A stretch of 64,000 nucleotides of DNA from an uncultured Clostridia bacterium (GTDB lineage Bacteria; Bacillota; Clostridia; Christensenellales; Pumilibacteraceae). The translations under genes and the position numbers were made by a program. Numbering within the stretch: position 1 is the first letter of the stretch; each line of letters starts with the position of its first letter. The notes under the pieces were generated by a model that ran no database searches, was not told the origin of the DNA, and saw only the letters and a program-made list of their open reading frames with translations. The stretch spans positions 775 through 64,774 of the forward strand of contig CAMUKG010000009.1 of NCBI GenBank assembly GCA_947089425.1, given 5' to 3'. This document shows, piece after piece, positions 36,897 through 54,368 of the stretch.

Positions 36897-36910
36897 GTGA
36901 GGTGGAAAAA

Positions 36911-39900
36911 ATGAGTGCGAATAAGCAAGTCGGAAAGTTGAGTTTGTGGTGCATAACGGTTGTTCTTTTTGCGTGCGCTATTGCCGCAACTGTTACGTGC
37001 GCGCCTAAACAAAAGGCGTATGCGGCGCAAATTTCGGTAGAGGGTGCGGGCGACGCGTTCGTGTATTCCGAAGAGAGTTATGAAGCGGACGAAAGCTTTG
37101 CGTATGTTTCTACCGCTTGCTTCGAACGCGGAAATGCCGCAGGGCTTGTGTTCGGCGGCAAAGAAAACGACAGTTGTTTTGTTTTTAACGTAGACAGAGC
37201 GAACAACTTAGTAAAACTTATGTACTTTTACAATATGGCGGAAGATAAAAAAGTTGCGGTGCTTAAAGAAGAATACTATGTGGGAAGCAAGATAATGAAC
37301 GACGGCGAGAAAAGCTACGTGCAAAGCCGTACCGCAAATTTAGATAAAGTGTATTTGAAAGTTACCGTGAACGGCGACGGTACCGCCGAATTTTACGCCG
37401 ACGGAATACGCCGTTTTGCGTTCGTGGACGGAAGCAAACCTGCCGCCGAAATAAATTTGAATTCTTTTAAGCTCGAAGACGAAACTCCGATACGATATGA
37501 CGGCGGACTTTTGGGATATAATTGTTTTAATGCAAAAGTGAGTTTTACCGACACGCTTATAGGCAAAATGGATTACGGATATTACGGAGAGTTATATCGC
37601 AATCAATATCACTTTTCGCAATTTGCGCATTGGAACAACGACCCTAACGGATTGGTGTATTACAACGGATATTATCATTTATATTTTCAACACAATCCTT
37701 ACGGCAATACATGGGATGCAATGCACTGGGGACACGCGCGCAGCACAGATTTGGTGCATTGGGAACTGCTGCCCATAGCTTTGGTGCCCGACCGTGATTT
37801 ATCTGTCGACGTAGGCGCAATGTGGTCGGGTAGCGCAAGAGTTTATCATAAAGGCGACAGCGGCGTAATAGACGGCTATAATTGGTTTGACGCTACCGAT
37901 AAGCAAAAAGGCGACGCTCTCGGTTTAATAGCGTATTACACCCGTTTCGATAATGGAGGCAACAGACATCAAATTTTAGCGTATTCCACCGATGGCGGAC
38001 TTAGTTGGAACAAACGCGATAATATTAAAAGTACGGTATCTCTCGATTTGCAAGGCAATCCCGTAAACGGGGGATCGTGGCGCGACCCGAAAATATTCGA
38101 TATATCCGCTCTCAACGGGGTTGGCGATTACAAATGGGGAATGGCGCTTACCGATATGGAAGACAATACGTTGTTCTTCCTCAAATCCAAAAATCTTGTG
38201 AGTTGGGAACATGCGGGAAGTTATTTCGTTTATCGCCCCGAATGCCCCGACGTGTTTACGCTGTCTACCGACGACGAAACGGAACATACCGTAATAACGT
38301 TTACTTCGCGTTACTACGTAGTGTGCGATTTGGCTTACGAAAACGGCAAAATCGTAATGAAAGAGCCTAAGGCGGATAATCCCGCCACAATCGAAAGATT
38401 GGATAGAAACAGCGAATATTTGCAAATTATGGATTATGGCGTAGATTCGTATGCGGGGCAAACTTTTTACATCGACGCAAATTCCGACAGCGAATATAAA
38501 GGTGAATCGGTGGGGTTGAGCTGGTTTTCGGGTGTTCCGAACGACGATAAGTCGATAGAGAGCGGAGTTTTGCAGACGGCGCGTAAGATATGGAACGGCG
38601 GAGGCATGACCGTTCCGGTGGTTTACGGCTTACGAAAATCGGGCGAAAAATATGTTCTCACGTCTACGCCGATTACCGTAGACAACGAAAGCGATTTTGC
38701 CAAAACGCGACTTAACGGTATAGATGATATAAACGGGCATTGTTTCGAAATATCCGCAACGGTGCAAAACGACGGAGCCGAGCCTGTGTATTTCAGAATA
38801 AACGGCAGTGCGGACGGAACGCGCTATACCGAAATAGGCTGGAATTCGCAGGACGGATATTATGTGGACCGAACTTATACCGAAGACGCCGGCATAAACT
38901 TTCCTTTACCGAATTACGCATGCAAGTACGTTTCGAATATGGGTAAATCGAACAAGACGTTGGAATTTTACATTCTTTCTGACAACGGCGGCGTTGAAGT
39001 GTATTGCGACGGGTTCACCGTTCCGTTCTACATTTTAACGTTTGCTTCACCGTATTCGGTAAAAGCAACGTTTACTGCCGATTCGTCGGCAAACGCGGAA
39101 TTGACTGTAAACGAAATAGCGTCGGTGTGGCGCGGCGAGAGCGAGGAAACGCTAATCAATATTTCGGACATGCAAATAGATTTGGGGGCGGAACTCGGTC
39201 AGTCGCAAATCGTAACGGCATATGCGCAAGGAAAGGAAATTGAGTGGGAAGTCGTGGAAGGTACGGATATTATAGAAGTGAAGCCAACTTCTACGGGCGC
39301 CGAAATCATAGGCAAAAAGGCGGGCTCGGCACGCGTAAAAGTTTCTGCGGGATTGAGCAGCCGAACAATAGACGTAACGGTTCACAGCGGAAAGGCGGAA
39401 AGCGATTTTACTTTTACTACCGACGGTATAGTGTCGGGTAGGTGGTATTATAGCGGCAACTCGCTTATAGGCGAGCAATCGGGCGGCGACGGATTTATTC
39501 TCGCAAACGAGAGCGGCGGAGACTTTACTTATACCGCGCAATTCGATTTGGGAAGCGGAGCGGCCGCCGCGCTTGTGTTCAGAGCTACCGCCGAAAACGG
39601 CAAACTCACGAGCTACCTAATTGCGAATTACGACAATAATTCCAAGATAGTTAAGCTGTGGTCGCAAAACGGAGAGCTCGCTAACGTTCCCGCCGGAAAT
39701 CCGAATATCGAAAATCTTGTGCTTACGGCGGAAACCAAAGGCAAAAACGTGAAAGTGTATCTTAACGGAAACAAGCTTATAGACTGTGTCGTACGCGATA
39801 CCGACCCCGTAAGCGGCAAATTCGGTCTTAACGTATGCGCGACGCGCGCGGCATTTTCGTTGATTACCGTGCAAAAGAGCGAATACGGTTATTCGGGTAG

Positions 39901-40525
39901 CGGCGATTTTGTAATAAAGAGCAGCGTGGAACAGCAAGCTTTGGAAATAGTGAATACCACTCTCGGCAATACGGCTCTTTCGCAAGGTCAGTATGAAACG
40001 GTAGGACGCGAAATAAGAATAAAGCAGAGTTATATCGAATTATTGCCGTCGGCGGGTGAATACAAGTTTGTTATTTACGGTTCCGCGTTTACGTTTACGG
40101 CAAAAGTAATCGTGGAAAGCATACCGCAAACCGAACTTGTCGCCGTTACGGTTGACGAGGGAATAAACGCAACGATATGGCTCGGTAACAGTAACGTTCA
40201 ATACGTGAAAGTGAACGGCGCGGAGCTCGACGCCGGTTTATACAAAATATACGGTTATGTGCTTACGGTTATGCCCGACGCCTTTGAAATAGGAGAAAAC
40301 ACCGTGTCTGTCAACGATACGCAAGTTACGACGGTTACGGTTCGAGAAGTGCCTAAAAATGCGGTTTTAAGCGGCGGCGAGAGCAAAAAGTCGAACGTCG
40401 GTTTGATTGTGGGGCTTAGCGTGGGAATTCCCGTTCCGATTATAGCGACGGCTGTCGTTGCGGTGGTATTGATTTGGCGCAAAAAGAAATCGGCAAACAA
40501 AAACGACTCGGAGAAAAAGGAGTAA
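36911..40525 (+). CDS. Secreted, C-terminally membrane-anchored multidomain GH32 exo-beta-fructosidase/levanase-like enzyme
   Basis: Signal peptide; WNNDPNG, WSGSA, WRDP, ECPD; CBM66-like modules on both sides of the catalytic domain; Ig-like and X2-like segments; terminal TM plus RKKK. Confidence 0.85.
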   Translation: MSANKQVGKLSLWCITVVLFACAIAATVTCAPKQKAYAAQISVEGAGDAFVYSEESYEADESFAYVSTACFERGNAAGLVFGGKENDSCFVFNVDRANNLVKLMYFYNMAEDKKVAVLKEEYYVGSKIMNDGEKSYVQSRTANLDKVYLKVTVNGDGTAEFYADGIRRFAFVDGSKPAAEINLNSFKLEDETPIRYDGGLLGYNCFNAKVSFTDTLIGKMDYGYYGELYRNQYHFSQFAHWNNDPNGLVYYNGYYHLYFQHNPYGNTWDAMHWGHARSTDLVHWELLPIALVPDRDLSVDVGAMWSGSARVYHKGDSGVIDGYNWFDATDKQKGDALGLIAYYTRFDNGGNRHQILAYSTDGGLSWNKRDNIKSTVSLDLQGNPVNGGSWRDPKIFDISALNGVGDYKWGMALTDMEDNTLFFLKSKNLVSWEHAGSYFVYRPECPDVFTLSTDDETEHTVITFTSRYYVVCDLAYENGKIVMKEPKADNPATIERLDRNSEYLQIMDYGVDSYAGQTFYIDANSDSEYKGESVGLSWFSGVPNDDKSIESGVLQTARKIWNGGGMTVPVVYGLRKSGEKYVLTSTPITVDNESDFAKTRLNGIDDINGHCFEISATVQNDGAEPVYFRINGSADGTRYTEIGWNSQDGYYVDRTYTEDAGINFPLPNYACKYVSNMGKSNKTLEFYILSDNGGVEVYCDGFTVPFYILTFASPYSVKATFTADSSANAELTVNEIASVWRGESEETLINISDMQIDLGAELGQSQIVTAYAQGKEIEWEVVEGTDIIEVKPTSTGAEIIGKKAGSARVKVSAGLSSRTIDVTVHSGKAESDFTFTTDGIVSGRWYYSGNSLIGEQSGGDGFILANESGGDFTYTAQFDLGSGAAAALVFRATAENGKLTSYLIANYDNNSKIVKLWSQNGELANVPAGNPNIENLVLTAETKGKNVKVYLNGNKLIDCVVRDTDPVSGKFGLNVCATRAAFSLITVQKSEYGYSGSGDFVIKSSVEQQALEIVNTTLGNTALSQGQYETVGREIRIKQSYIELLPSAGEYKFVIYGSAFTFTAKVIVESIPQTELVAVTVDEGINATIWLGNSNVQYVKVNGAELDAGLYKIYGYVLTVMPDAFEIGENTVSVNDTQVTTVTVREVPKNAVLSGGESKKSNVGLIVGLSVGIPVPIIATAVVAVVLIWRKKKSANKNDSEKKE

Positions 40526-40530: not shown

Positions 40531-41499
40531 ATGGCGGCAACAATATCGGACGTTGCAAAATGCGCGGGCGTTGGCATAGGCACCGTGTCGCGCGTGTTGA
40601 ACGGCGGGAAATCGGTAAAAGCGGACAAACGTCAGGCAATCATGCGAGCCATAGAGGAGCTAAACTACACTCCCAACAGTATGGCTAAACGGTTACGCAA
40701 ACAAAAAAACGGTGTAATTGCGCTTATGGTGCCTATTGTAAATCATCCGTTTTTCGCACAATTTACCGATTGTATCGAGCAGGAGGCGGATAAATTCGGT
40801 TATTCGATTTTATTGGTTGCGTCTCAACAACATGCGGAAAAAGAGAATGAAATATTGGATAGAATAGAACGCCGAGAAGTGGATGGCGCAATATTCGTTA
40901 CGCATCATAATCATACGCCCGAGCGTCTTAAAAGTTATCCGCTTGTTTCGGTAGACAGACATCTGGCGGAGGGCGTGGCTTACGTTACGAGCAACAATTA
41001 CGAATCCACAAAAAACGCCGTTGAGTATCTTATAGAGCGAGGTTGTAAAAACATAGGGTATGTAGGCACGAAGCCTCTTGTCGATTCCGAAGTATTATTG
41101 CGCGAAAAAGCGTATCGCGACGTTATGAACGCGCATAATCTTCCGCTCTCGGCGCTCAATGAAGTTGCGGTGCACGGTGATGAAATAACGCTTGTTAACG
41201 AGTTCTTCAAGAAGTTTCCAGACTTAGACGGTGTGTTCGCTTCGGGATACAGCGCCGCTCAATGCGTATGTGAAGTCGCTTTACAAAGCGGAAGAAAAAT
41301 ACCCGACGACCTTCAAATGGTGGCTTACGACGGCAATTTCAAGCAGTGGGGCGGTCGGAACATTACTTGCGTGCAGCAACCAATTGAGAAAATGGCTCAA
41401 TCGGCAGTCAGGCTGTTGATAGACAGAATAAACGGTAAAACCGTGCCTATCCGTACGGTTCACGAAACTAAGTTAATATTAGGTGACACAACCAAGTAA
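40531..41499 (+). CDS. LacI-family transcriptional repressor
   Basis: TISDVAKCAGVGIGTVSRVLN HTH, YTPNSMAKRL hinge, periplasmic-binding-protein fold. Confidence 0.92.
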   Translation: MAATISDVAKCAGVGIGTVSRVLNGGKSVKADKRQAIMRAIEELNYTPNSMAKRLRKQKNGVIALMVPIVNHPFFAQFTDCIEQEADKFGYSILLVASQQHAEKENEILDRIERREVDGAIFVTHHNHTPERLKSYPLVSVDRHLAEGVAYVTSNNYESTKNAVEYLIERGCKNIGYVGTKPLVDSEVLLREKAYRDVMNAHNLPLSALNEVAVHGDEITLVNEFFKKFPDLDGVFASGYSAAQCVCEVALQSGRKIPDDLQMVAYDGNFKQWGGRNITCVQQPIEKMAQSAVRLLIDRINGKTVPIRTVHETKLILGDTTK

Positions 41500-41524: not shown

Positions 41525-42862
41525 ATGAAAGGTAAAAGGTTTTTAGTGAAAGCGGCGGTTCTTATGCTGGCTGTGTGCTGCATTGTGAGTTTTGCGGCTT
41601 GCGGCGGCGGAGGTAAGGGCGAAGAAGTTGAAAGCAGAACGGATAAATACGGTAACACTCTTGTTACCATTATGGTGCACAAAGATTCTTCTACCAAAGA
41701 AGGCAAAGCATACCAAAAGTGCGTTGACGACTTTAACGCCGCATATAAAAGTAAAAACATTAAAGCGCAAATTACGTTTGTGGCGCAAACGTCGGGTGTT
41801 GACCAGTATGAGGCTACCATAAGCAATTTATACAGGCAAGGCGGCGGTAAGCTGTACGACATTATCTCGTTTGACGCGCCCAAATGCGCGGGCTACGCGA
41901 AGAGCGGAATTTTGTACGATATGACGAGCGCTCTCGGCGACTATACCGACAACTTTATTTCCGAATCGGTGAACCGTTATGACGGAAAAGTTTACGGATT
42001 GCCCATTCAGGAATCGAGCGCAGGCTTTTATTATAACAAAGTCGTGCTAAACGCCGCCGGCATTACCGATGGAGAAATTGCTGGTTACCAAACAAACGGT
42101 TGGACTTTCGAGCAATTTAAAGCGGTGTGCGAAAAGCTGAAAGCAGCGGGAAAGACGGCGGTGGATATGCAACTTGCCGCCGGCGGCGAAACTTGCACCT
42201 ATTTGCTGTATCCGCTCGGAAATGCGGCGGGCGGCGAGTATGTTTCGGCTGACGGAAAAACCGCAGACGGGTATTTGAACAGCGCGCAAACAAAGGAAGG
42301 ATTTCAATTCATAAAAGACTGCATAGACAACGGCTACACAAATTACCAAATAGACGGGAAGGCGTTCTTAACGGGTGACAGCGTGGGCATGTATTTATCT
42401 TCGGGTTGGACTATTCCCGACATAAAAGAGCAGTATAAAGATAACTTTACGGGCGGTTGGGGAATTTTGCCCTATCCTCATAAGTCGGGTAGCGATGCCG
42501 TTTCTGCTACGGGAAGTTGGAGCTTCGGCATTACCAACAACGGTATACGCAATAAGGATGCGGCGGTAGAACTTATTAAGTGGATGACGAGCGACGAGAG
42601 CGCAACCACCATAACGAACGCTACGGGCATGATAGCGGCGAAATCTACTATAAACAAAAATTACGAAGCTACTTCGCCCGAAGGAGTGTTGTATAATCAG
42701 CTTGTAAATTCGGGCAAAGCTCGTCCGTCGATGGGTGCGTATGCCGATTTTTCAACCGAGTTCAATCTTATCATAACGGGATTACGCACCGACAGCGTAG
42801 AAAAAGTGCTTAACGAACACACCACGTCTTTGCAAACAAAAATAAACCGTAACGACAGGTAA
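41525..42862 (+). CDS. Sugar ABC transporter solute-binding lipoprotein
   Basis: Lipobox FAAC; DGKVYGLP, FYYNK, TGSWSFGI; adjacent permeases. Confidence 0.88.
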   Translation: MKGKRFLVKAAVLMLAVCCIVSFAACGGGGKGEEVESRTDKYGNTLVTIMVHKDSSTKEGKAYQKCVDDFNAAYKSKNIKAQITFVAQTSGVDQYEATISNLYRQGGGKLYDIISFDAPKCAGYAKSGILYDMTSALGDYTDNFISESVNRYDGKVYGLPIQESSAGFYYNKVVLNAAGITDGEIAGYQTNGWTFEQFKAVCEKLKAAGKTAVDMQLAAGGETCTYLLYPLGNAAGGEYVSADGKTADGYLNSAQTKEGFQFIKDCIDNGYTNYQIDGKAFLTGDSVGMYLSSGWTIPDIKEQYKDNFTGGWGILPYPHKSGSDAVSATGSWSFGITNNGIRNKDAAVELIKWMTSDESATTITNATGMIAAKSTINKNYEATSPEGVLYNQLVNSGKARPSMGAYADFSTEFNLIITGLRTDSVEKVLNEHTTSLQTKINRNDR

Positions 42863-42887: not shown

Positions 42888-43859
42888 ATGCTAATAGGTG
42901 CTTTGTCGGTTTTTATCGCTATGGCAGCCGCGTTTGGAACGGTGGCTGCGGTAGACGTTGTAAAAGCCAAAAAATACAAAGAAAGATATAGAATAAGAGA
43001 GTGCGGAACGGCTTATCTTATGTTGTTGCCCGCTGTGGCTTTGGCGTTTATTTTCATAGTGTTGCCCATAGTTTATTCGCTCGGGTATGCGTTCACCGAT
43101 TTTCACATGTATTACCCCAACGATATAAAGTTTATAGGGCTTGACAATTTTAAAGAGTTGTTCAGAGAAATCGGCGTAAAGGGCGAATTGTATCACGCAA
43201 TCATAAACACCGCTATATTCGTAGTGTGCGTTGTGCCGTTGCAAATCGGACTTGCGCTCGTGCTCGCTCTGTTTACCAACCGCAAGAAAAAAGGCGTGAA
43301 GATTTTCAAAGTCTGTTTTTTCACGCCGGTAGTAATCTCTCTTACGGTTACGTCGTTTTTGTGGGTGCAAATTCTCGCGCCCAACGCATCGGGGCTTTTG
43401 AATTCTTTTTTAAGCGTTTTCGGTGCGGAGCCTATCGACTTTTTGGCTCAGGAAAAAACGGCGATGCTGTGGATTGTGCTGATGAGCGCCTGGCAGGGTT
43501 GCGGGTATCAAATGCTTATATTCAGTTCGGGGCTTACGAATATACGCGACGATTTATATGAAGCGGCGTCGTTGGACGGAGCGGGTTCTTGGCAAAAGTT
43601 CTTACATATTACGCTTCCCGGTTTGCGCTCTACTTTGCTGTATATCACAATTACCGTATTTGTGGGAGCGTGCAGAGTTATGATACAGCCGATGTTGATG
43701 ACTGATTATAAATTGCATACGGTTACGCTCAGCTATTATATGTATCAACTCGGTTACGGTTCCAAACTCGTAGGACTGTCGTCGGCCGTCGCTCTCATGA
43801 TGACGGTGGTAATAGGCATTATAACTCTGCTTCAACGCAAGTTTTTGAAGGAGGATTGA
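42888..43859 (+). CDS. Carbohydrate ABC transporter permease 1
   Basis: FIGLDNF; DLYEAASLDGAGSWQKFLHITLP EAA motif. Confidence 0.92.
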   Translation: MLIGALSVFIAMAAAFGTVAAVDVVKAKKYKERYRIRECGTAYLMLLPAVALAFIFIVLPIVYSLGYAFTDFHMYYPNDIKFIGLDNFKELFREIGVKGELYHAIINTAIFVVCVVPLQIGLALVLALFTNRKKKGVKIFKVCFFTPVVISLTVTSFLWVQILAPNASGLLNSFLSVFGAEPIDFLAQEKTAMLWIVLMSAWQGCGYQMLIFSSGLTNIRDDLYEAASLDGAGSWQKFLHITLPGLRSTLLYITITVFVGACRVMIQPMLMTDYKLHTVTLSYYMYQLGYGSKLVGLSSAVALMMTVVIGIITLLQRKFLKED

Positions 43860-43860: not shown

Positions 43861-44772
43861 ATGACGAATACCTCTTACGCAATAGGTGCGGTAACGAAGA
43901 CTGTAAATAAGCCAGCAAACGGAAAAAAGAAAGCGTTAACCGTTATATGGTATGTATGCGGCGCGTTGTTTTCGTTGCTGTTTATTTTGCCCGTTATTTA
44001 TATGCTTGCCGTATCGACAAAAAGTCAGCTTGCCGCCGACAGAGCAAGGGGCATAGCAATGTTCTTTCCCGACTTTATGAATTTGAACACCTTTTTCAGC
44101 AATTATTCTAAGGTGTTTACCGCTTACGGAATTTGGCGCAACGCGCTTAACAGTTTCATGTATGCCGCTGTGGCAATCGTTTGCAATATCTTGGTGAACG
44201 GACTTGCGGGCTATGCTATATCGAAATTGAATTTTCCGGGCAAAAAGTTCTTCACGTTTATTATTTTATTCCTAATTATAGTGCCTGTTGAAACGTCTAT
44301 TATTCCTATGTATATGGTGGTTACCGAGCTTCTCGGGCTGCAAGACCGCGCCACAGTGCTCGGAGTTATACTTCCGTCGTGCATAAGCATATTCAACATA
44401 TTCCTGTTTATACAGTTCTTTCAAGGCATACCCGGCGGATATGAAGAGGCGGCAAGGATAGACGGCGCAAGCAGACTCAAAATATTTTTCAGCATTATAT
44501 TGCCGCTGAGCAAACCCATTGTGGCAACGGTAGCCGTGTTTTGTTTTATCGGCGTGTGGAACGACTATCTTTGGCCTATGATGCTGCTTACGCCGTATCC
44601 CAATATGATGCCGATACAAGCTGTTTTGCAAACCATACAGAATATAGAGGGTGTTACTACGGGTGAAATTATGGCGTCGTTGGTTGTTACCAGTATACCC
44701 ATTTTTGTGATTTATGTAGTTGCGCAAAAGTATATAGTGCAAGGGTTCGGTTCGGCGGGACTGAAAATGTAA
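43861..44772 (+). CDS. Carbohydrate ABC transporter permease 2
   Basis: YEEAARIDGAS EAA motif, WNDYLWP. Confidence 0.92.
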   Translation: MTNTSYAIGAVTKTVNKPANGKKKALTVIWYVCGALFSLLFILPVIYMLAVSTKSQLAADRARGIAMFFPDFMNLNTFFSNYSKVFTAYGIWRNALNSFMYAAVAIVCNILVNGLAGYAISKLNFPGKKFFTFIILFLIIVPVETSIIPMYMVVTELLGLQDRATVLGVILPSCISIFNIFLFIQFFQGIPGGYEEAARIDGASRLKIFFSIILPLSKPIVATVAVFCFIGVWNDYLWPMMLLTPYPNMMPIQAVLQTIQNIEGVTTGEIMASLVVTSIPIFVIYVVAQKYIVQGFGSAGLKM

Positions 44773-44792: not shown

Positions 44793-47324
44793 ATGAAGAA
44801 CACAAAAAAAATAGGAGCGTTTGTTGCGGCGCTGGCGATTGCCGTAACCGGGTTCGGTTTTAGCGGTTGCACGAAAAATGAAGTTAAAACTACATTGCTT
44901 GCAAAATACACGTTTGAAAACGTGAGCGGCACTCAGGTAGTGAATGAAGCCGACGGTACGCGCGACAATATAAGCTACGTTTTCAATGCCGAAAACGCCG
45001 ACTATTTGGTGAAAGAACCTTCCGAACCGCTTGTTAAGCGGGGGGGGGTGAAAGGTAGCTGTTTATATATGGACGGGTTTTCTACGTATGTGGAAAACGG
45101 TAAGTTTTCAACGCCCGAAACCGCCGTTACGCTTTCGGCGTGGGTAGCGCCTCGCGTATTCGAGAATTTGCCTTATTACGGCGACCAGTCGGAAGCGAAA
45201 GGACAGCCGCGTTTAACGTCGGTAATCAACAAGGGCAATATAGAAATCGGGCAAGGTTTTTTGCTGGGGTACGGAAAACTCGGTATGTGGGGATTGCAAC
45301 TTGCGCTTCACAATTCCGATAACGATACGAATTCCGTTATCGCTTTTTACGACCCCGTAAACGCTTTACCGCTTTACGAGTGGTCGCATATTGCCGCTAC
45401 GTATAATGGCGATACGGGCTATGTAGCTCTGTTTTTCAACGGCGAGAAAGCATACGAGGACATCATTCCCGAGCTCGTAAATACCGAGATAATAGAGAGC
45501 AACGAGCCATTGTATGTAGGCGCGTACTGTGCTCCCGTTACCGAGTTTTCGATAAAAAGACAAATGCCGTCGGGGCTCATCGACGAAGTGGCGATTTACG
45601 GCGAAAGCTTAACGCCCAAACGGGTGCGCGAATTATTTGAGGACTGTGCGCCGAACGGAGTAATACCCAAGTTGGATTACGAGCAAATTGCCTTAGATTC
45701 TTCGGTGTATGAGGGCGACAGATATCGTCCGCAATATCACGCAATACCGCCTGCGGTTTGGATGAACGAGCCTCATTCGCCGTTTTATTACAAAGGCAGA
45801 TACCATGTGTTTTATCAGTGTAATCCTTCGGGACCGTACTGGTCTCAAATACGTTGGGGGCATATCGTAAGCGACGATATGATACATTGGAAATACGTCA
45901 AAGACGCCGTAGTGCCCACTGCGGGAATTTGCCCCGAAGGCGTATGGACGGGCGGCGCTTGCATAGGTCCGGACGGAACGCCGTGGCTTGCGATTACCGC
46001 AGGCACAAACTTATACGGCAATCCGAATCACGGAGGGCAAAACGTGGCGTTTGCCCACGCGGCAGACCCCGACGACCCCGACCTTACCGAATGGATTGTG
46101 GAAGATACTCTCACGATTACGCAGCCCAACGACAACAGTATGGGCGAGCGAGAGCAATTCCGCGACCCGTTTGTTTGGTACGATGACGAAACGAGCCGGT
46201 ATTTTATGCTTGTAAGCACATCCGTACCGGGTGCCGGCGGTTCCGCAAACGTGTATACTTCGCAAAATATGCACGAGTGGGAACATCACGGCTATATTTA
46301 CGAATGTCCTTATCCCGATTACGACATAGCGGGCGAGCACTGGGAGTGCGTCGTGCTTTTGCCTATATCCACAAAAGACGGCAAAACCCAAAAGTATATA
46401 CTCTTTGATTGCCCGCAGTACGCCCGCGGTGAAAATCCGCCGCAAGTGGAATGCTATTATTGGATAGGAACGTTTGATAAGAATGCGTGCAGATTTATTC
46501 CCGACAGTCACGAACCTAAACTTTTCGACGTGGGCACGGCTACGTTTACGGGTCAAAACGGATATTGTTTTTTAACCGACGAACAAAAAGCTGCCGGACT
46601 TACTTATGAGCAAGGACGCACCGTGCTGTATTCGATTGCGCAGGGCAAAGACGCAGGCACGGGGCTTAATTACTATGCGGGTTGGGCGCACAACTTTTCG
46701 TTCCCGCTCGAACTATGGCTTTCGGATGACGGAAACGAAGTGATACGCGAGCCAATAAAAGAGATAGAAAGTTTGTACGGCAAAGTGGAATACGAGTATA
46801 GCGGCGACGGCATGAGTGCCGCGCAGATAAATTCCGCAATAGGCGAAATTCGCGGCGACACCATAAAAATCGACGCAAAGATAACTCTTGCGCCCGCAGC
46901 CGAAAACTATGCGGCAAAAATAGGAGTAAGATATAATCCGAATACTTCGGCGGAAGGCACCGAACGCACTTTTATAGTATTTTCAAACGGAAAAGTGGAA
47001 GTGGACAGATTGCAATCCACGTTGCGACCGGGAGTGAATACGCAGTCGCTTCACAGCTGGGCTTTCGGCGACGCGCGCGAATTTGACGTTACCGTTCTTT
47101 TGGACCGCTCTATGCTCGAAGTTTATATAAACGGAGTAATGAGCGCTACAATGCGCATATATCCGCATTACGGAGATTCCGACTATATACGGGTATTTGA
47201 CGAAAATGCGGGACTGCTTATAAAAGAATTCAAAATTACGCAAATGAAGAGCGCTTATACTGCCGACGGAAGCATTACGCCGCCGTATTACGGCAATACG
47301 GGTAATTTGGCGGATAAAGCATGA
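44793..47324 (+). CDS. Lipoprotein GH32 with N-terminal LamG domain and WMNE motif (endo-inulinase / CFTase-like)
   Basis: Lipobox FSGC; LamG (TLSAWVAPR..WSHIAATY..FFNGE..GLIDEV); HAIPPAVWMNEPHSP at 45759, FRDP, WECVV, AGWAHNFSFP. Confidence 0.8.
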   Translation: MKNTKKIGAFVAALAIAVTGFGFSGCTKNEVKTTLLAKYTFENVSGTQVVNEADGTRDNISYVFNAENADYLVKEPSEPLVKRGGVKGSCLYMDGFSTYVENGKFSTPETAVTLSAWVAPRVFENLPYYGDQSEAKGQPRLTSVINKGNIEIGQGFLLGYGKLGMWGLQLALHNSDNDTNSVIAFYDPVNALPLYEWSHIAATYNGDTGYVALFFNGEKAYEDIIPELVNTEIIESNEPLYVGAYCAPVTEFSIKRQMPSGLIDEVAIYGESLTPKRVRELFEDCAPNGVIPKLDYEQIALDSSVYEGDRYRPQYHAIPPAVWMNEPHSPFYYKGRYHVFYQCNPSGPYWSQIRWGHIVSDDMIHWKYVKDAVVPTAGICPEGVWTGGACIGPDGTPWLAITAGTNLYGNPNHGGQNVAFAHAADPDDPDLTEWIVEDTLTITQPNDNSMGEREQFRDPFVWYDDETSRYFMLVSTSVPGAGGSANVYTSQNMHEWEHHGYIYECPYPDYDIAGEHWECVVLLPISTKDGKTQKYILFDCPQYARGENPPQVECYYWIGTFDKNACRFIPDSHEPKLFDVGTATFTGQNGYCFLTDEQKAAGLTYEQGRTVLYSIAQGKDAGTGLNYYAGWAHNFSFPLELWLSDDGNEVIREPIKEIESLYGKVEYEYSGDGMSAAQINSAIGEIRGDTIKIDAKITLAPAAENYAAKIGVRYNPNTSAEGTERTFIVFSNGKVEVDRLQSTLRPGVNTQSLHSWAFGDAREFDVTVLLDRSMLEVYINGVMSATMRIYPHYGDSDYIRVFDENAGLLIKEFKITQMKSAYTADGSITPPYYGNTGNLADKA

Positions 47325-47335
47325 GGAGGGAAGTT

Positions 47336-49909
47336 ATGCGTAAAGCAGTTAATAAAAAATTATTTGCGGCTCTTATAATTGCCGTAATGGCGGCGGCGTC
47401 GCTTGTATTTACGGCTTGCGGCGACAAACCGTCCGTTGCGCAAGAACTGCCCGTAGAAGTAATAAACGGCGGATTCGAAACTGCCGATTTAAGCGGTTGG
47501 ATAGTAGAAAGCGGCGAGGCGTTCGACGACGACAGCGTGTCTTCGCGCAAAACATTTTCGTACGCTTACGATTCGGCGCACAAACAAATTCCGATAAATC
47601 AGACGGGAAACTGGTATCTTGACGGCAAAGGCTACGACGGTAACCGCAGTCACGGGTATACGGGGAGCATACGCTCCAAGAACTTTATGTTAAGCGGCGA
47701 CGGAACCGTTTCGGTTAAGCTCGCGGGCGGCGCGCTCGTGGTGCGCAAAGGAGAAAACGCGCCTCTTAAAAGCAAAGAGAAAATTTGCTACGTGGGCGTG
47801 TACACCGCCGAAAACGATAAGCTTGTGCACAAATTTACCAACTCATATTTTTTCGAGCATACCGAAAACTATGTAAGCGTTGAAGACTATGAAAACGGCA
47901 CTTGCTGTACCGATAATTTTTATCGTTATACCGCAGATTTATCGGAATACGTCGGAAAAGAAATGTACATTCGCATAGTGGATAACGATACCTACGTGTA
48001 TTACGGTTATATTAGCGTTGACGATATTCGCGTGGGCGATGCGGAAGAACAGAGCGAGGGCGTGTACTTCGAAAAGTCGCGCGAGTTTGTGCCTGACGCG
48101 GAAGCGCCGAACAAATACGAAGTAAAAAACGGCGGGTTCGAAACGGGTTCGCTTGCGGGATGGACGGTAGTAAGCGGCGGAGCTTTCTCGCATGACGGGG
48201 TAAATTCGAACGCATATTGGTGGAACGAAAATATACCGTATTGTCGCGACGGCAAATATCATTACGGTTTTTATAAGCCTACCGAAACGGGAGTGTTGCG
48301 TTCAAGCGAGTTTGTGCTTGGCGGCAGCGGATATATAAGTTATAAGTTGGGCGGTTGCCGCAACAACGAGCTTACGTATTTGCGTTTTATGGTAAAGAAC
48401 GGCGATACAGCCGAAGAAGTGGCTCGCTATTCCAACTTCAAATTTTGGAACTATCAATTCCCGTACGTGCAGAACGGGTTGCGTATGCTCAATCTTGTGC
48501 AGTATTACGCCGACTTTTCCGCATATCTCGGCAGAACTATGTATATAGAAGTCGTAGACGAAAACACTTCGTCCGATGACACCGACTGCATAACGCTCGA
48601 CAGCGTGCAAACGTATTGGGAGAGTAAGCCGCAGTGGTACAACAGCATAGCTTTTGAGGCAAAAGTCAATCCCGATTCGATAGATATCGAACCCGACAGT
48701 CCGTATCAGCTTAAAAACGGCACGTTTGAAACGGGTGATTTGACGGGTTGGACGCTTGACGGCAACATAGGCGTGGTGTCTTCCGATTACGGTTGGTGGA
48801 ACGAGAATTTCCCGTACAATAAAAAAGGAAGATACCTGTTTACGGGTATAGCGCACGAAGGCGAAAAGGGAACGCTTACGAGCGACGCGTTCGAACTCGG
48901 CGGCATAGGAGTGATTTCGTTCCGTATGGGCGGCGGCGCAAATCCCAAACAAATTTATGTTTCGGTACTTAACGCCGACAACGGCGAGGAACTCGCGCGG
49001 TTTGCCAACGTCAAATTCTCCGATAAGAATACTGCGGGAATCAACGTAAACAGCTTTTTGGCGAATATGGTGCAGTATAAAGTCGATTTGACCGAGCTTG
49101 GAATTGCGCTCGGCACGAACATTAAGTTGCAAGTGGTGGATAACGCGGTAGCCTACTGGGGACTTGTTACGGTTGACAGCTTTATCACGTACTACGAAAA
49201 TGAAGAGCAAGTGCCTAAAAAAGCTTTTACGGCTGAAAATATAAAACCGGAGACCGACGCCGTATTCGGAGAAAACGATTCTCATCAAATCCTTAACGGC
49301 AATTTCGAAACGGGCGATTTGACGGGGTGGAGCGTAACGAGCGGCAACGTTAATTCAAACATAGCCGTTCAAGCCGCGACTACGTTTTGGAACGAAGACC
49401 TTCCGTATAACAAAGGCGGCATGATGCATTTTGACGGGTGGAAAGCCAACGGCGACGAAGCGGCATCGTATTCGTTGCGCTCCGAAGATTTTACGCTCGG
49501 AGGCAGCGGCGTGATATCGTTTAAGATGGGCGGTAAAACGGCTGAACTCAAAGTGTATAAAGCGGACGGGACTTTGATTGCCGCTTATGCCAATACGGCG
49601 TTTGCCGATATAAATTTCCCCAAAGTTGACGACGGTTGCCGCCTTGCAACCATGACTACGTTCGTTGCCGATTTGAGCGAATACAAAGGGCAGGAGCTTT
49701 ATGTGGAAATTTGCGACCGACCGTTTAAAGACGGCGAAACGGGTTGGGGCGTTGCATTCTTCGATGAAATCATTACTTATTACAAAACCGCGCCAGTCGT
49801 GGAAGAAATGTTCGATACCGTCGAACTTAATTCGCAAACGGCTTTGGGCGGCGTTGCAAAAAGTTACGATATTTCTTGGGAAGTTGCGGTGAATACCGTA
49901 AAAAAATAA
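47336..49909 (+). CDS. Non-catalytic lipoprotein with four tandem CBM38-like modules
   Basis: Lipobox FTAC; NGxFETxxLxGW repeats at about 47465, 48128, 48716 and 49295, each with L.S..F.L.G.G..S.K.GG-type and YIEVVD-type motifs; no GH32 catalytic motif. Confidence 0.7.
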   Translation: MRKAVNKKLFAALIIAVMAAASLVFTACGDKPSVAQELPVEVINGGFETADLSGWIVESGEAFDDDSVSSRKTFSYAYDSAHKQIPINQTGNWYLDGKGYDGNRSHGYTGSIRSKNFMLSGDGTVSVKLAGGALVVRKGENAPLKSKEKICYVGVYTAENDKLVHKFTNSYFFEHTENYVSVEDYENGTCCTDNFYRYTADLSEYVGKEMYIRIVDNDTYVYYGYISVDDIRVGDAEEQSEGVYFEKSREFVPDAEAPNKYEVKNGGFETGSLAGWTVVSGGAFSHDGVNSNAYWWNENIPYCRDGKYHYGFYKPTETGVLRSSEFVLGGSGYISYKLGGCRNNELTYLRFMVKNGDTAEEVARYSNFKFWNYQFPYVQNGLRMLNLVQYYADFSAYLGRTMYIEVVDENTSSDDTDCITLDSVQTYWESKPQWYNSIAFEAKVNPDSIDIEPDSPYQLKNGTFETGDLTGWTLDGNIGVVSSDYGWWNENFPYNKKGRYLFTGIAHEGEKGTLTSDAFELGGIGVISFRMGGGANPKQIYVSVLNADNGEELARFANVKFSDKNTAGINVNSFLANMVQYKVDLTELGIALGTNIKLQVVDNAVAYWGLVTVDSFITYYENEEQVPKKAFTAENIKPETDAVFGENDSHQILNGNFETGDLTGWSVTSGNVNSNIAVQAATTFWNEDLPYNKGGMMHFDGWKANGDEAASYSLRSEDFTLGGSGVISFKMGGKTAELKVYKADGTLIAAYANTAFADINFPKVDDGCRLATMTTFVADLSEYKGQELYVEICDRPFKDGETGWGVAFFDEIITYYKTAPVVEEMFDTVELNSQTALGGVAKSYDISWEVAVNTVKK

Positions 49910-49929: not shown

Positions 49930-52725
49930 ATGAAAAGAGCAATTAAAAGACTGTCGGTTATTGTGATGTCGCTTGTAATCGTGTTTTCGGTTGCCGTATT
50001 TGTTGCGGCTTGCGGTGACAAAAACAACGACAATCCCCCTGCAAACGAACAAACCGAACCGGTAAAAATCAAAGACGGCGAGGCGATAAGTCTTACGGTA
50101 GAGGAAGAGTGTAAGAGCATAATCATAGCCGATTATGTTACGGTGAACGGAAATAACGTAACGGTTGCGTCATCGGCTCCCGATATAGCGACGGCTACGC
50201 TTACGGACGGAGTAGTTACGGTAAACGCCGTTAAAAAAGGAACGGCAACGGTAACGGTTACGTGCGGCAATGTGGAAATTGCGTTTGCTGTTACGGTGTC
50301 CGAAAAGTCTGTTGCTCCGCCTGCGACGGTCGAGTATACCGTTTCGCTCAACGGCGAGGAAAGCACGGTTGAAGAAAACGGAATTTTCACGTTGCCCGAA
50401 TCCTTTACTCCCGAAGATGAAGATTTCGAGTTTGTACGTTGGAATATAGTGGGCGACCATGAAATAAGCGGTAATAAAGTGACCGTTCTCGGCGATTTAA
50501 CGATTACCGCCGAAACGCTCAGGAAAGGGGCGGAGAAAATCAAAGACGGCAATTCGCTTACTTTCACAGTCGGCGACGCCGCAAAGACTGTAACCGTAGC
50601 GGAATATATAACGACGCACGGCAATGACGTTTCTGCGAATTCCGATACGCCCGCCGTCGCAACGGCTACGCTTACGGACGGAGTAGTTACGGTAAACGCC
50701 GTTAAAAAAGGAACGGCAACGATAACGGTTACGTGCGGCAATGTGGAAATTACGTTTGCGGTCACGGTTGGCGATGCTACGCAAATTACGACTCCGTCGG
50801 TAAAGAATGCCGAAGTCGTAATTTCGGAAACGCACGATTTGTATTCGGGCGATTATACCGTTGATTTGGCGGAGAATATCGAACTTGCGAACCTTATAAC
50901 GGGTTATATGGTAAATTCGGAGTCTGTTGACGGTACAACGTATTCTATAAGCGGCGACACGTACACGCAAACGCCCACGCTTGTTACTTTAAACGTAACG
51001 GCGACTTACAATGGCGGCTCTGTAAACTATGTATACAAGGTAAATATAATCGATACTACGGCATACCGTATACGCAACGGCGGATTCGACGACGGACTCG
51101 ACGGTTGGCAAAAGATAGGGCAAATCGGCAATATCAGCGAAGCTACGGCGTATTGGACTAACGACAACGACGGTAACGGATATTCATATAACGCCGACGG
51201 CAAATTCTTTTCGGCATACGAACCTTCCGACAGGTTTGAAAGCAATATAGGAGCGCTTATCAGTTCGCCGTTTAAAGTGTCGCAAAACGGAATTATAACG
51301 TTTAAACTCGGCGGCGCAAAGCACGATATATTTGTTGACGTAGTAGATACCGAAAACGGCGAAATAATCGCGCGTTACGGCAACAGCGCGTGGGCGGAGA
51401 CTACCGACAATTTAAAGAGCGGTTGCACGCTTATCGCCTATAAAGCGACGTTACCCGCAAGCGCGGTTGAAAAGACGGTGTACATTCGCGTTATAGATAT
51501 GGCGCAATCCGATTACGGCGTACTGTTTTGCGATTCGTTCGTTACGTATTACGAGAGCGCGCCCGAGAGCGGTATCGACGCGGTGGATATAACCGACCGC
51601 CCCGCGACCGTATACGAATTATATAACGGCGGATTCGAGCAGGATATGAAAGGTTGGGTTATTTCGGGCGGAGATATCGGTGCCGTGACTGCCGATAAAG
51701 GTTGTTTTAACAACGGTGACCCTAACGACACTACTAAGGCTTACGGTCAGGAAGACTCAAAACTTTTCTCGTTTTGGAGTTGGAACGAAGCGGAAAACAA
51801 AGAATACAATCGCGAGGGCAATCTCGGCACGCTTACAAGCAATATGTTTGTTTTAAAGCCGAATAAATTCGTATCGTTCAAGTTTGGCGGCGGAAAAAAC
51901 CGTAACGTATTTATAGAACTCGTTAATGCCGAAAGCGGAACGGTTATCGCGATATTCCGTAATGACAACGTTGTTGAGGGAAATGAAAGCGCGCTTGTAA
52001 GTTATAGTTATGCGCCTACAACAGCCGAGCTTTCCGCCGATGCTCTGTGTTACTTCCGCGTAGTAGACAACGCCGTAACCGATTGGGGATGCTTTACCGC
52101 CGACGCGTTTAAAGTTAACCTCGACAGTGCGCCTACGGATAGCGCTCTCGCGGTTAATTGTTTGAGCGAATATAAGTCGTTGATAAACGGCAGTTTCGAA
52201 GACGGCAATCTTAACGGGTGGACCGCTCCCGCCGGAAATGCTCTCGGTGCGGTGGTGAATACCGAAAAATCGGAGAGTTGGTATCAGACCAACGAAAGCA
52301 CGAAAGACGGTAACTGGTTATTTACGTTCTACATTCCGAACTGGGGAGATAGTAACAATAAAGAAAAAGGAACGGGCGTTATTCGTTCGAGCGCGTTTAT
52401 CCTTGATAAGAACGGCATTGTATCTTTCCGTTTCGGCGCGGCGCATAATAGGGAGGTATATATAAACGTTTACACAACGGGCGGAAGACTTTTGGCGACG
52501 TTCCGTAACAATGCCTTTACCGAAGCTACCGTTATGGTACAGTATTACTATCAATTTGATAATGCCGAAGAACTGTCTTGCTACTTTGAGATTGTAGATA
52601 ATGCGGAAAAGGATTACGGGTGCATTGTTATGGACGACTTCCGCGTAAACCTCGAAGCTGCGCCTAACGGAGCGATTCTCGGCAGTTCGCTTACAAAAGC
52701 GGAACGAGACCAAGCAAATAATTAA
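49930..52725 (+). CDS. Non-catalytic lipoprotein: two Ig-like (Big_2) domains, linker domains and three CBM38-like modules
   Basis: Lipobox VAAC; duplicated ATATLTDGVVTVNAVKKGTAT; NGGF/NGSF modules at about 51076, 51625 and 52186. Confidence 0.7.
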   Translation: MKRAIKRLSVIVMSLVIVFSVAVFVAACGDKNNDNPPANEQTEPVKIKDGEAISLTVEEECKSIIIADYVTVNGNNVTVASSAPDIATATLTDGVVTVNAVKKGTATVTVTCGNVEIAFAVTVSEKSVAPPATVEYTVSLNGEESTVEENGIFTLPESFTPEDEDFEFVRWNIVGDHEISGNKVTVLGDLTITAETLRKGAEKIKDGNSLTFTVGDAAKTVTVAEYITTHGNDVSANSDTPAVATATLTDGVVTVNAVKKGTATITVTCGNVEITFAVTVGDATQITTPSVKNAEVVISETHDLYSGDYTVDLAENIELANLITGYMVNSESVDGTTYSISGDTYTQTPTLVTLNVTATYNGGSVNYVYKVNIIDTTAYRIRNGGFDDGLDGWQKIGQIGNISEATAYWTNDNDGNGYSYNADGKFFSAYEPSDRFESNIGALISSPFKVSQNGIITFKLGGAKHDIFVDVVDTENGEIIARYGNSAWAETTDNLKSGCTLIAYKATLPASAVEKTVYIRVIDMAQSDYGVLFCDSFVTYYESAPESGIDAVDITDRPATVYELYNGGFEQDMKGWVISGGDIGAVTADKGCFNNGDPNDTTKAYGQEDSKLFSFWSWNEAENKEYNREGNLGTLTSNMFVLKPNKFVSFKFGGGKNRNVFIELVNAESGTVIAIFRNDNVVEGNESALVSYSYAPTTAELSADALCYFRVVDNAVTDWGCFTADAFKVNLDSAPTDSALAVNCLSEYKSLINGSFEDGNLNGWTAPAGNALGAVVNTEKSESWYQTNESTKDGNWLFTFYIPNWGDSNNKEKGTGVIRSSAFILDKNGIVSFRFGAAHNREVYINVYTTGGRLLATFRNNAFTEATVMVQYYYQFDNAEELSCYFEIVDNAEKDYGCIVMDDFRVNLEAAPNGAILGSSLTKAERDQANN
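50191..50751 (+). repeat. 90-bp intragenic direct repeat (50191-50280 and 50662-50751)
   Basis: 89/90 identical by manual alignment; encodes Ig-like beta-strands. Confidence 0.9.
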
Positions 52726-52745: not shown

Positions 52746-54089
52746 ATGGCATATGAACAAATAAGACCTGTATTTCATATTACGGGCGGAAACGGTTGGA
52801 TAAACGACCCCAACGGATTGGTTAAATTTAACGGCGAATATCATGTATTCTATCAGTATTATGCCGAAGCGACTTATTGGGGGCCCATGCATTGGGGACA
52901 CGTTAAAAGCAAGGATTTGACGCATTGGGAAAGACTCCCCGTTGCAATCCGTCCCGACGAACAGGACGACGGTTGCTTTTCGGGTAGCGCCATAGTTCAC
53001 AACGGCAAAATGTGGCTTATGTACACAAGCTACAAAAAAAACGACGGCGGAGTAAGCGAACGGCAACTGCAAGCGCTTGCTTCGTCGGACGACGGCGTAT
53101 ACTTCTTTAAGCATGGCATAGTGATAGGCGAGGACGATTTGCCCGAAGGATACTGTGCTTGGAGTTTCCGCGACCCTAAGCTTTTGCGTGTAAACGATAT
53201 GTTTTACTGTTTTGTTGCCGCCAAAAAGCGCGAGGGGAATGGCAGAATTCTTTTATACAAATCCGTTGATTTGTTTAAGTGGACTTTTGTGTGCGACGTA
53301 ACCGACCGCGATAACGGAGGCAAAATGGTTGAGTGTCCCGATTACTGTACTCAACTCGGACTGCTTACATACAGCGAACAGTTTCAACCGCACGAGGGGA
53401 ATACGCACCTAAATATCCATAGTGCGTTCGCTCAATTCGGTACGTTTGACTTTAATAAACCTTTTGTTCCCGACAGTAAGCGGCAAATTATCGATTACGG
53501 GTTTGATTTTTACGCTTCGCAGTCGTTTGCCGAAGAGCCGATTATGATAGGCTGGTTGGGCATGTGGGACAGAAACTATCCTTGCGCAAAATACGGCTTT
53601 GCCGGTATGCTTACCGTTCCGCGTCGTTTGCAAAGAGTGGGAGACGAGCTCGTTCAAACGCCTATATATACCGCTAAAAAGGTGTGCGAAAAGTCGGTGA
53701 AAGGCAAATTGACAGACAATATATCGGTGGGCGCGGTTCGTTTCGAGCTCAACGGTTTGCGAGCGTTCGATTTGAAAATGCGCAAGTCGGGCGACGAATA
53801 TGCCGAATTTACGCTTTCGGGCAACGAGTGGGTGTTTAACCGCTCTCGTTGCGGTGCGCAAATTGTGGGGGCGGAGGAAGACGACGATTCGCTTGCGGGA
53901 ATTCGCCGTATGCCTTATCGCTACGCTCAAACCGATACCGTTGAAATCGTCTTCGACTTATTTTCGGTTGAAATTTTCGTGAACGGTAAAGCTCTGTCGT
54001 CTACGCTGTATCCCGCCCCCTCCGCCGACGGACTCGAACTGACTGTTGATTGCAACTCTTGTACCTATACTCGCTACGAAATCGAATAA
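52746..54089 (+). CDS. Cytoplasmic GH32 beta-fructofuranosidase / sucrose-6-phosphate hydrolase-like
   Basis: WINDPNG, CFSGSA, FRDP, ECPD, DYGFDFYA; no signal peptide. Confidence 0.88.
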   Translation: MAYEQIRPVFHITGGNGWINDPNGLVKFNGEYHVFYQYYAEATYWGPMHWGHVKSKDLTHWERLPVAIRPDEQDDGCFSGSAIVHNGKMWLMYTSYKKNDGGVSERQLQALASSDDGVYFFKHGIVIGEDDLPEGYCAWSFRDPKLLRVNDMFYCFVAAKKREGNGRILLYKSVDLFKWTFVCDVTDRDNGGKMVECPDYCTQLGLLTYSEQFQPHEGNTHLNIHSAFAQFGTFDFNKPFVPDSKRQIIDYGFDFYASQSFAEEPIMIGWLGMWDRNYPCAKYGFAGMLTVPRRLQRVGDELVQTPIYTAKKVCEKSVKGKLTDNISVGAVRFELNGLRAFDLKMRKSGDEYAEFTLSGNEWVFNRSRCGAQIVGAEEDDDSLAGIRRMPYRYAQTDTVEIVFDLFSVEIFVNGKALSSTLYPAPSADGLELTVDCNSCTYTRYEIE

Positions 54090-54318: not shown

Positions 54319-54368
54319 ATTTTGAAAACGCGCCTCGAAAGTTTCGTTTGGCTTTCGGGGCGCGTTTT
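54280..54368 (+). repeat. Copy 2 of the ~90-bp LRR 3'-end/terminator element
   Basis: 35/40 identity to 4357-4396, followed by an identical AACGCGCCTCGAAAGTTT and a matching 3' arm. Confidence 0.85.

Follow-up and report, generated by a model that had tools for sequence, protein, structure and literature searches.

Known gene sets for fructan use in gut bacteria are of a similar design: the operons of Gram-positive species (for example, Roseburia inulinivorans or lactobacilli) and the fructan polysaccharide utilization loci of Bacteroides, with BT1760, combine surface binding and cleavage, oligosaccharide import, a cytoplasmic glycoside hydrolase of family 32 (GH32) with a fructokinase, and a sugar-responsive regulator. 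To our knowledge, these gut systems use GH32 enzymes with a catalytic aspartate (Asp-type). Here, we analyze a gene for a GH32 enzyme with a glutamate in that position (Glu-type), which lies in an operon of similar logic within a 64,000-nucleotide (nt) stretch of DNA, hereafter the window, from an uncultured Clostridia bacterium of the family Pumilibacteraceae (order Christensenellales; contig CAMUKG010000009.1). The gene, at positions 44793 to 47324 of the window, encodes a predicted lipoprotein of 843 amino acids (aa) in which a LamG domain precedes the GH32 domains, and we refer to its product as the LamG-GH32 lipoprotein.

The closest described enzymes fall into two functional types. Among hydrolases, the endo-inulinase EnIA of Arthrobacter sp. 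S37 (gene of 2439 bp; catalytic residues Glu323, Asp460, and Glu519) yields linear inulotriose to inulopentaose (PMC5984348), and the endo-inulinase INU2 of Aspergillus ficuum is a GH32 enzyme that acts endo on inulin with a Glu nucleophile, E43, in a WMN(D/E)PN motif (PMC3829992). Among transferases, the cycloinulo-oligosaccharide fructanotransferases (CFTases) are known only from Bacillus and Paenibacillus, and both CFTase activity and the production of cyclofructan-6 have been published for Paenibacillus sp. LX16 (PMC4835578); in the CFTase of P. macerans, a carbohydrate-binding module of family 38 (CBM38), a type reported to bind inulin and levan, has been placed at residues 32-389 (PMC10076258). 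For the Pumilibacteraceae (GTDB f__CAG-552), only a minimal set of carbohydrate enzymes has been described, with starch as the sole substrate predicted for Pumilibacter intestinalis and Anaerocaecibacter muris (bioRxiv 10.1101/2022.03.07.483007). The literature searched contained nothing specific to this gut family or operon, to CAG-552 in combination with inulin, or to LamG in combination with GH32, and no report of free-standing CBM38-repeat lipoproteins.

The LamG-GH32 lipoprotein, itself uncharacterised, adds a new member to a known enzyme subfamily and is encoded in a conserved operon. It is probably a hydrolytic endo-fructanase, tethered to the cell surface, that supplies linear oligosaccharides to an ATP-binding cassette (ABC) importer and acts most likely on beta-2,1 fructan; judged by sequence, its closest functional analogue is the bacterial endo-inulinase (EC 3.2.1.7). 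Endo action, linkage preference, hydrolysis in preference to transfer, and fructan binding by the neighboring repeat proteins are what we infer from the comparisons that follow. The features of the gene are these:

44793..47324, + strand: GH32 lipoprotein gene, ATG start, 843 aa plus stop
44793..44870, + strand: lipoprotein signal peptide, read from the sequence, ending in the lipobox FSGC (Cys26, invariant in 24 orthologues)
45081..45626, + strand: LamG domain (Laminin_G_3), residues 97-278 (Pfam, 3.8e-14)
45738..46754, + strand: five-bladed propeller catalytic domain (Glyco_hydro_32N), residues 316-654 (Pfam, 3.6e-51)
45759..45776, + strand: nucleophile motif WMNEPH, residues 323-328 (E326), in the column of the catalytic Asp; invariant
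46161..46169, + strand: RDP motif, residues 457-459 (D458, transition-state stabiliser; role per PMC3829992); invariant
46344..46349, + strand: EC motif, residues 518-519, within (W)EC at 517-519 (E518, acid/base; role per PMC3829992); invariant
46824..47237, + strand: C-terminal beta-sandwich (Glyco_hydro_32C), residues 678-815 (Pfam, 1.5e-13)

The original prediction, which saw in this gene a CFTase-like enzyme for making cyclic fructans, had delimited the open reading frame (ORF) exactly, and everything that it quoted from the protein is there: WMNEPH, LamG ahead of GH32, HAIPP (316-320), QIRWGH (352-357), VSDDM (359-363), HW (365-366), YYWIGTFD (555-562), FDVG (578-581), and AGWAHN (629-634). 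The lipoprotein signal is a feature that it did not mention; from the lipobox with its invariant Cys26, the enzyme is predicted to be anchored to the outer face of the membrane. The ATG is preceded, at a distance of 5 nt, by a GGAGG ribosome-binding site. Membership in GH32 is evident from the propeller, the C-terminal domain, and the full triad of E326, D458, and E518. Matches of the protein to NCBIfam models (sucrose-6-phosphate hydrolase and BfrA) stay below threshold. In HMMER alignments to solved GH32 enzymes, E326 falls on the catalytic Asp of WINDPN (3PIG) and WMNDPN (2AC1). Across 24 orthologues (63-87% identity), W323, M324, N325, E326, P327, H328, R457, D458, P459, E518, and C519 do not vary. 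Given its conservation in 346 genomes, the ORF is neither a pseudogene nor a product of chance.

Glu-type GH32 domains preceded by LamG form a large bacterial subfamily, as judged from searching cluster representatives exhaustively with the catalytic half of the protein: at least 260 clusters (50% identity) match at E <= 1e-30, and W[MTA]NEPH is present in roughly 110 of the 150 representatives that match best. LamG directly precedes Glyco_hydro_32N in all seven long members checked and in three Paenibacillus proteins considered below (P0378, P0416, and P0396). Because the subfamily is large and includes hydrolase as well as transferase types, the WMNE motif together with the LamG layout is no indicator of cyclisation. 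The rule given in the original prediction, that WMNE marks endo-inulinases and CFTases of this layout, therefore holds at the level of the subfamily: endo-inulinases and candidate CFTases do share this core, but the core does not tell hydrolases and cyclising transferases apart. A further notion, that WMNE marks ancestry shared with the fungal endo-inulinases, was rejected, as the fungal enzyme 3RWK is a weaker match to the protein than are Asp-type exo enzymes.

Two sets of Paenibacillus proteins served as references in placing the LamG-GH32 lipoprotein within the subfamily. The first comprises P0378 (1333 aa, P. polymyxa), P0376 and P0416 (1338 aa), the last from Paenibacillus sp. LX16. These we treat as candidate CFTases in view of the activity of strain LX16, the position of the CBM38 region, and their length, that of the published CFTase being presumably 1333 aa. 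A profile hidden Markov model (HMM) of the module places CBM38-like modules at residues 72-252, 257-383, and 1166-1332 of P0378, so that the candidates run from two modules (~72-383) through LamG and GH32 to a related C-terminal repeat. The second reference is P0396 (QAT77244.1, 757 aa), deposited as “endoinulinase [Paenibacillus polymyxa],” the name being that of the depositor. The LamG-GH32 lipoprotein is 34% identical to P0378 (1e-137) and equally so to P0396 (1e-134), over ~790-810 aligned positions.

We inferred a neighbor-joining tree from 200 LamG-GH32 cores (680 columns, 100 bootstraps). In it, the family of the LamG-GH32 lipoprotein joins two sister lineages in a clade of its own with 100% bootstrap support. 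The candidate CFTases form another clade (100%), which has WMNEAH throughout and excludes the protein; the clade of the “endoinulinase” P0396 (100%) shares WMNEPH with the protein, which falls outside it too. We also derived a CFTase signature, consisting of alignment columns in which at least 90% of the candidate-CFTase clade has one residue that occurs in at most 10% of sequences elsewhere; at these 66 columns, the LamG-GH32 lipoprotein has the candidate-CFTase residue in 5. As far as sequence can tell, then, the enzyme has no specific affinity to CFTases and does not belong within the named endo-inulinase clade. The phylogenetic check against CFTases and endo-inulinases that had been proposed for it accordingly gives a divided answer, in that the protein lies apart from the candidate CFTases and yet does not cluster with hydrolytic endo-inulinases.

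An AlphaFold (AF2) model built from a 65-sequence alignment reached a predicted local distance difference test score (pLDDT) of 90.2 and a predicted template modeling (TM) score (pTM) of 0.89, whereas an earlier model from 24 close orthologues attained a pLDDT of only 63.6. Given this pTM, LamG is confidently packed against the GH32 body in the model. Foldseek matches it to GH32 structures in the PDB at TM scores (relative to the Foldseek target) of 0.75-0.88, covering the GH32 half only (TM relative to the query, ~0.5), and none of the PDB matches is a solved structure that corresponds to the entire LamG + GH32 unit. Exo- and endo-acting enzymes are mixed in the ranking (plant invertases, Bifidobacterium longum 3PIG, the Thermotoga maritima invertase, and the endo-inulinase 3SC7). 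By sequence, the matches among solved GH32 enzymes include B. longum 3PIG (2.5e-34), the fungal endo-inulinase 3RWK (1.8e-13), and the endo-levanases, which are distant (LevB1, 9H8I, 4e-17; BT1760, 6R3R/7ZNR, ~4e-5).

The gene is the seventh of ten same-strand genes that extend from 35953 to 54089 with short gaps or overlaps, flanked by a promoter-like and a terminator-like sequence. The other elements of the operon are as follows:

35830..35859, + strand: promoter-like TTGACA-18-TATAAT, 12/12 to the sigma-70 consensus, ~95 bp 5' of the first gene (consensus match only)
35953..36861, + strand: PfkB-family sugar kinase, probable fructokinase, 302 aa (Pfam PfkB, 1.2e-47)
36902..40525, + strand: Asp-type GH32 (WNNDPN at 244), 1207 aa, probable exo-fructanase (Pfam; solved relatives)
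40531..41499, + strand: LacI-family regulator (Pfam LacI, Peripla_BP_3)
41525..42862, + strand: ABC solute-binding lipoprotein, 445 aa (Pfam SBP_bac_8, SBP_bac_1)
42888..43859 and 43861..44772, + strand: two ABC permeases (Pfam BPD_transp_1)
47321..49909, + strand: 862-aa lipoprotein with four CBM38-like modules, its start overlapping the stop of the LamG-GH32 gene by 4 bp
49930..52725, + strand: 931-aa lipoprotein, Big_2 domains followed by three CBM38-like modules (Pfam Big_2; module HMM)
52746..54089, + strand: cytoplasmic Asp-type GH32 (WINDPN at 18), no signal peptide, 447 aa, of exo beta-fructofuranosidase type (Pfam, 5.9e-79)
54325..54368, + strand: terminator-like hairpin with a 19-bp stem, past the last gene (consensus match only)

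The operon contains the only three GH32 enzymes of the window, and the LamG-GH32 lipoprotein is the only Glu-type enzyme among them. The 1207-aa enzyme has a signal peptide, a CBM66-like module (844-995), and, at the C-terminus, a membrane anchor. The solved structures that match it best are the exo-inulinases 8I12 (1.6e-28) and 1Y4W and, for the module, the CBM66 of the Bacillus subtilis levanase (4AZZ, 1.4e-11). For the 447-aa enzyme, they are the exo beta-fructofuranosidases 7VCO (1.6e-66) and the T. maritima invertase 1UYP (6.4e-57). Neither the 445-aa binding lipoprotein (no close or informative match) nor the 862-aa repeat lipoprotein (no match) has a solved relative of use among the structures searched. 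No ABC ATPase gene lies between the promoter-like site and the terminator-like hairpin, and the transporter is therefore presumed to depend on a shared ATPase whose gene is located elsewhere. The mechanically called ORF of the LacI-family regulator begins at a TTG at 40474, before the gene of the 1207-aa GH32 has ended; a likelier start is the ATG at 40531, 6 bp past the stop.

The modules of the two repeat lipoproteins are ~180 residues long and open with NGGFETGDLxGW. In the 862-aa protein, they are encoded at 47441-48076, 48104-48652, 48692-49237, and 49271-49825, and in the 931-aa protein at 51052-51588, 51601-52155, and 52165-52677 (domain E-values of 7.8e-24, 2.6e-15, and 1.5e-20). In BLASTP comparisons, the repeats are 30-44% identical to residues 57-393 and 1170 onward of P0378 (E of 6e-54 to 4e-14). 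On this similarity, the module type that is fused to the core of the candidate Paenibacillus CFTase appears at the present locus in the form of free-standing surface lipoproteins. Neither fused CBM38 modules nor a C-terminal repeat are present in the 843-aa protein itself.

These components would fit together as a pathway for polymeric fructan. The two CBM38-like repeat lipoproteins would capture the polymer at the cell surface, where the LamG-GH32 lipoprotein would cut internal fructosyl linkages by a retaining mechanism (E326 as nucleophile, D458 as stabiliser, and E518 as acid/base), with water as the acceptor and short linear oligosaccharides as the products. The membrane-anchored Asp-type GH32 with its CBM66-like module would trim chain ends, the ABC system would take up the oligosaccharides, and the cytoplasmic exo beta-fructofuranosidase and the PfkB kinase would convert them to fructose phosphate, all under the control of the LacI-type repressor. 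The exo-type GH32s at the surface and in the cytoplasm both depend on free chain ends, and linear products offer these, so that the enzymes on either side of the membrane fit linear products. The presumed preference for beta-2,1 fructan follows from the characterised members of the subfamily, all of which act on inulin.

The operon is widespread and strongly conserved. Scanning one genome per species, we found relatives of the LamG-GH32 lipoprotein encoded in 346 species genomes; the 80 best matches, whose loci were surveyed by tblastn, belong for the most part to metagenome bins of Christensenellales recovered from the gut of mice, ruminants, and humans. Among cultured organisms, Pumilibacter intestinalis CLA-AA-M10 is the closest (87% identity), and its locus (L002) holds the same operon, with protein identities of 68-91% over the ten genes. 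Wherever contigs extend far enough, gene order is the same in the 80 related loci, with the exceptions of pfkB, which lies downstream in some loci of Bacilli (~50% identity), and of the LacI gene in one locus. The 862-aa gene directly follows the LamG-GH32 gene in every related locus that extends downstream, and the 931-aa gene is present in about two-thirds of the loci. Mouse gut metagenomes contain the exact sequence of the enzyme. Short, low-depth contigs from a single mouse gut metatranscriptome fall on its gene (45101-45411, 45455-45605, and 46369-46635) and on other genes of the operon; these are weakly consistent with expression in vivo, and DNA carry-over could also account for them.

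Some of the related loci lie outside the Clostridia. In five bins of Bacilli (L069, L070, L072, L073, and L077), the operon recurs in essentially the same form (~50% identity), except that the kinase gene is at the downstream end, and the fructan locus may have moved between Clostridia and Bacilli. Relatives with 56-57% identity also occur in contigs binned as Prevotella, Sodaliphilus, and Hallerella (L060, L064, and L065), and those of L060 and L065, which are long enough to tell, retain the Firmicutes-type ABC operon order; the placement of these three reflects either mis-binning or cross-phylum transfer.

Several points weigh against reading the LamG-GH32 lipoprotein as a hydrolytic endo-acting enzyme of inulin-type fructan. 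Its clade has no characterised member, so that a function assigned by sequence is transferred across ~34% identity, and all nodes deeper than this clade have bootstrap support below 50% in the neighbor-joining tree. Fold comparison of the model gives no distinction between endo and exo action. The likeness to EnIA, which we set out below, is drawn from published residue numbers and not from the EnIA sequence. We know of no sequence rule that separates hydrolysis from cyclising transfer in the LamG-GH32 subfamily. As for the linkage, the hosts (mice and ruminants) eat cereals and grasses, whose fructans are largely of the levan and graminan types, and the binding modules, taken as analogues, are compatible with levan as well, since CBM38 has been reported on both inulin and levan and the solved relatives of the CBM66-like module come from a levanase.

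These last points speak for an endo-fructanase that is specific not for inulin but for beta-2,6 levan or for the mixed-linkage graminan and phlein of grasses and cereals. Members of the clade occur in gut genomes from mice and ruminants, CBM38 binds levan as well as inulin by the report cited above, and the neighboring 1207-aa GH32 has a module related to the B. subtilis levanase CBM66, a family reported to bind levan chain ends (PMC10076258). We hold this to be a real alternative, albeit an unlikely one: wherever an activity has been published or deposited for a subfamily member (EnIA, the “endoinulinase” of P. polymyxa, and the CFTases), it is one on inulin, and the solved endo-levanases are, at ~4e-5 for BT1760 and 4e-17 for LevB1, only distant relatives.

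It is improbable that the enzyme is an exo-acting or processive surface fructanase, which would take fructose, or a small unit of fixed size, off the ends of chains and in which the Glu would be a trait of the lineage. Its nearest solved structures by sequence and by fold are indeed exo-acting (3PIG and plant invertases, as compared with the far weaker sequence match to 3RWK), but none of the solved structures comes from the subfamily, and the ranking of such distant structures says little. Moreover, the operon already has an exo-like, Asp-type GH32 at the surface, next to which a second exo enzyme would be redundant, and the characterised members of the subfamily are endo-acting.

Evidence that bears on cyclisation comes from three loci of different Paenibacillus species (L081, L082, and L083) that encode a candidate CFTase. 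Their genes are arranged in the order LacI, two permeases, a ~540-aa binding protein, a fusion of PfkB with GH32, a 757/758-aa Glu-type LamG-GH32, and the secreted candidate CFTase. The 757/758-aa gene lies directly 5' of the candidate CFTase in each of them:

L081, 7537-9810: Glu-type LamG-GH32
L082, 7537-9810: Glu-type LamG-GH32
L083, 7529-9805: Glu-type LamG-GH32

In L081, the 757-aa protein (P0467, 99% identical to P0396) has no signal peptide and begins at LamG, whereas the adjoining candidate CFTase has a signal peptide. By analogy with cyclodextrinase, this cytoplasmic “endoinulinase” may serve to open the rings in a cyclofructan pathway, and the logic of the locus would be that rings are made outside, imported, and opened inside by an endo-acting enzyme. 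The fusion protein, in which a GH32 of Asp type is joined to the PfkB sugar kinase, is 822-827 aa long (L081, 5072-7540; L082, 5073-7556); in L083, its gene was called as two pieces of 679 and 136 aa.

No cytoplasmic Glu-type LamG-GH32 partner is encoded in the 64-kb window, and in the tblastn survey of related loci, none had a second match assigned to the LamG-GH32 lipoprotein; that such a partner should accompany a CFTase is an observation from the three candidate loci and not an established rule. Instead, the cytoplasmic side of the operon is occupied, across the 80 related loci, by Asp-type matches only. An exo-type cytoplasmic GH32 needs a free chain end and rings have none, so cyclofructan made here could not be opened unless by an enzyme encoded elsewhere in the genome. 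The permeases of the operon are 25-29% identical to those of Paenibacillus, and its binding protein has no similarity to the Paenibacillus binding protein.

The original prediction, that the LamG-GH32 lipoprotein is a CFTase whose fructosyl-enzyme is passed to the far end of the same chain and yields cyclic products with a degree of polymerization of 6-8 for import by the ABC system, can draw on membership in the same subfamily with 34% identity over the whole core, on two adjacent genes with CBM38-like modules that bring every CFTase module type into the locus, and on the lack of a known sequence determinant of cyclisation, but it is very improbable, since the protein lies outside the candidate-CFTase clade (by a neighbor-joining tree with inferred references) and has few of the clade-specific residues, no fused modules, no C-terminal repeat, no suitable cytoplasmic partner, and an unrelated binding protein, in a subfamily that is large and whose known CFTases are confined to two genera. 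With clade, signature residues, modules, cytoplasmic partner, and binding protein all differing from the candidate CFTases, the proposal of cyclofructan synthesis and import is not borne out. The broader idea that the enzyme, alone or with the two CBM38-repeat lipoproteins, performs intramolecular transfructosylation to cyclic or anhydro fructans at the surface of a gut anaerobe likewise merits very little credence.

The rest of the window consists of housekeeping genes (leu/ilv, arg, tRNA synthetase, RNase R, and others). Among genes of other kinds, a 331-aa Ser/Thr protein kinase is encoded at 24261-25256 on the - strand, between branched-chain amino acid biosynthesis genes and ileS. Downstream of the operon, 59436-61655 encodes a 739-aa protein with a Listeria-Bacteroides repeat and GLUG motifs, and 61803-63383 holds a 526-aa ORF without a Pfam match; both products may be surface proteins.

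If the LamG-GH32 lipoprotein is a surface endo-fructanase that hydrolyzes its substrate to linear products, then the Christensenellales, including the Pumilibacteraceae, a sizeable set of gut bacteria that has received little study, own dedicated and strongly conserved machinery for polymeric dietary fructans, at the core of which sits an enzyme type that has so far been characterised only in soil bacteria. This would bear on the question of which organisms consume inulin-type prebiotics and cereal fructans in the gut. The split arrangement of an enzyme with separate four- and three-module CBM38-like lipoproteins would then represent a Gram-positive equivalent of the surface glycan-binding proteins. 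Cyclisation, if it did occur, would be the first outside Bacillus and Paenibacillus, in a clade present in hundreds of gut species, and would constitute a new competitive strategy in the gut, with products that the exo-fructosidases of competitors cannot use. As matters stand, what makes the locus interesting is its ecology, with Christensenellales as users of fructan, and the division of enzyme and CBM38-like modules among separate proteins, rather than cyclofructan chemistry.

Among the described enzymes, INU2 (3RWK/3SC7) is a distant relative: its fold matches the model (TM relative to the Foldseek target, 0.84), but it lacks LamG, and as its sequence match (1.8e-13) is weaker than those of the exo enzymes, the shared Glu probably does not derive from a common endo-inulinase ancestor. 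The candidate CFTases resemble the LamG-GH32 lipoprotein in being secreted and in having the LamG + Glu-type GH32 core, and CBM38-like modules occur in both kinds of loci; in the candidate CFTases, however, the modules are fused to the core and the motif is WMNEAH, whereas in the present operon they reside in separate lipoproteins and the motif is WMNEPH. P0396 has the same layout, with LamG, Glyco_hydro_32N, and Glyco_hydro_32C, no extra modules, WMNEPH, and 34% identity, but it has no signal peptide (and would thus be cytoplasmic), is encoded beside a candidate CFTase, and belongs to another well-supported clade. A homologue search with this P. polymyxa “endoinulinase” was filled by Paenibacillus orthologues of at least 79% identity, and EnIA was not among the matches. 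In its published residue numbers, EnIA (Glu323, Asp460, and Glu519) stays within three of the E326, D458, and E518 of the LamG-GH32 lipoprotein, and its 2439-bp gene compares with a protein of 843 aa that has no further modules; the numbering implies the same arrangement in both, an N-terminal region of ~300 residues followed by a Glu-type GH32. EnIA differs in its motif, which is of the WMNEPN rather than the WMNEPH type, in its origin from a soil actinobacterium, and in being a soluble secreted enzyme, where that of the gut bacterium is a predicted lipoprotein.

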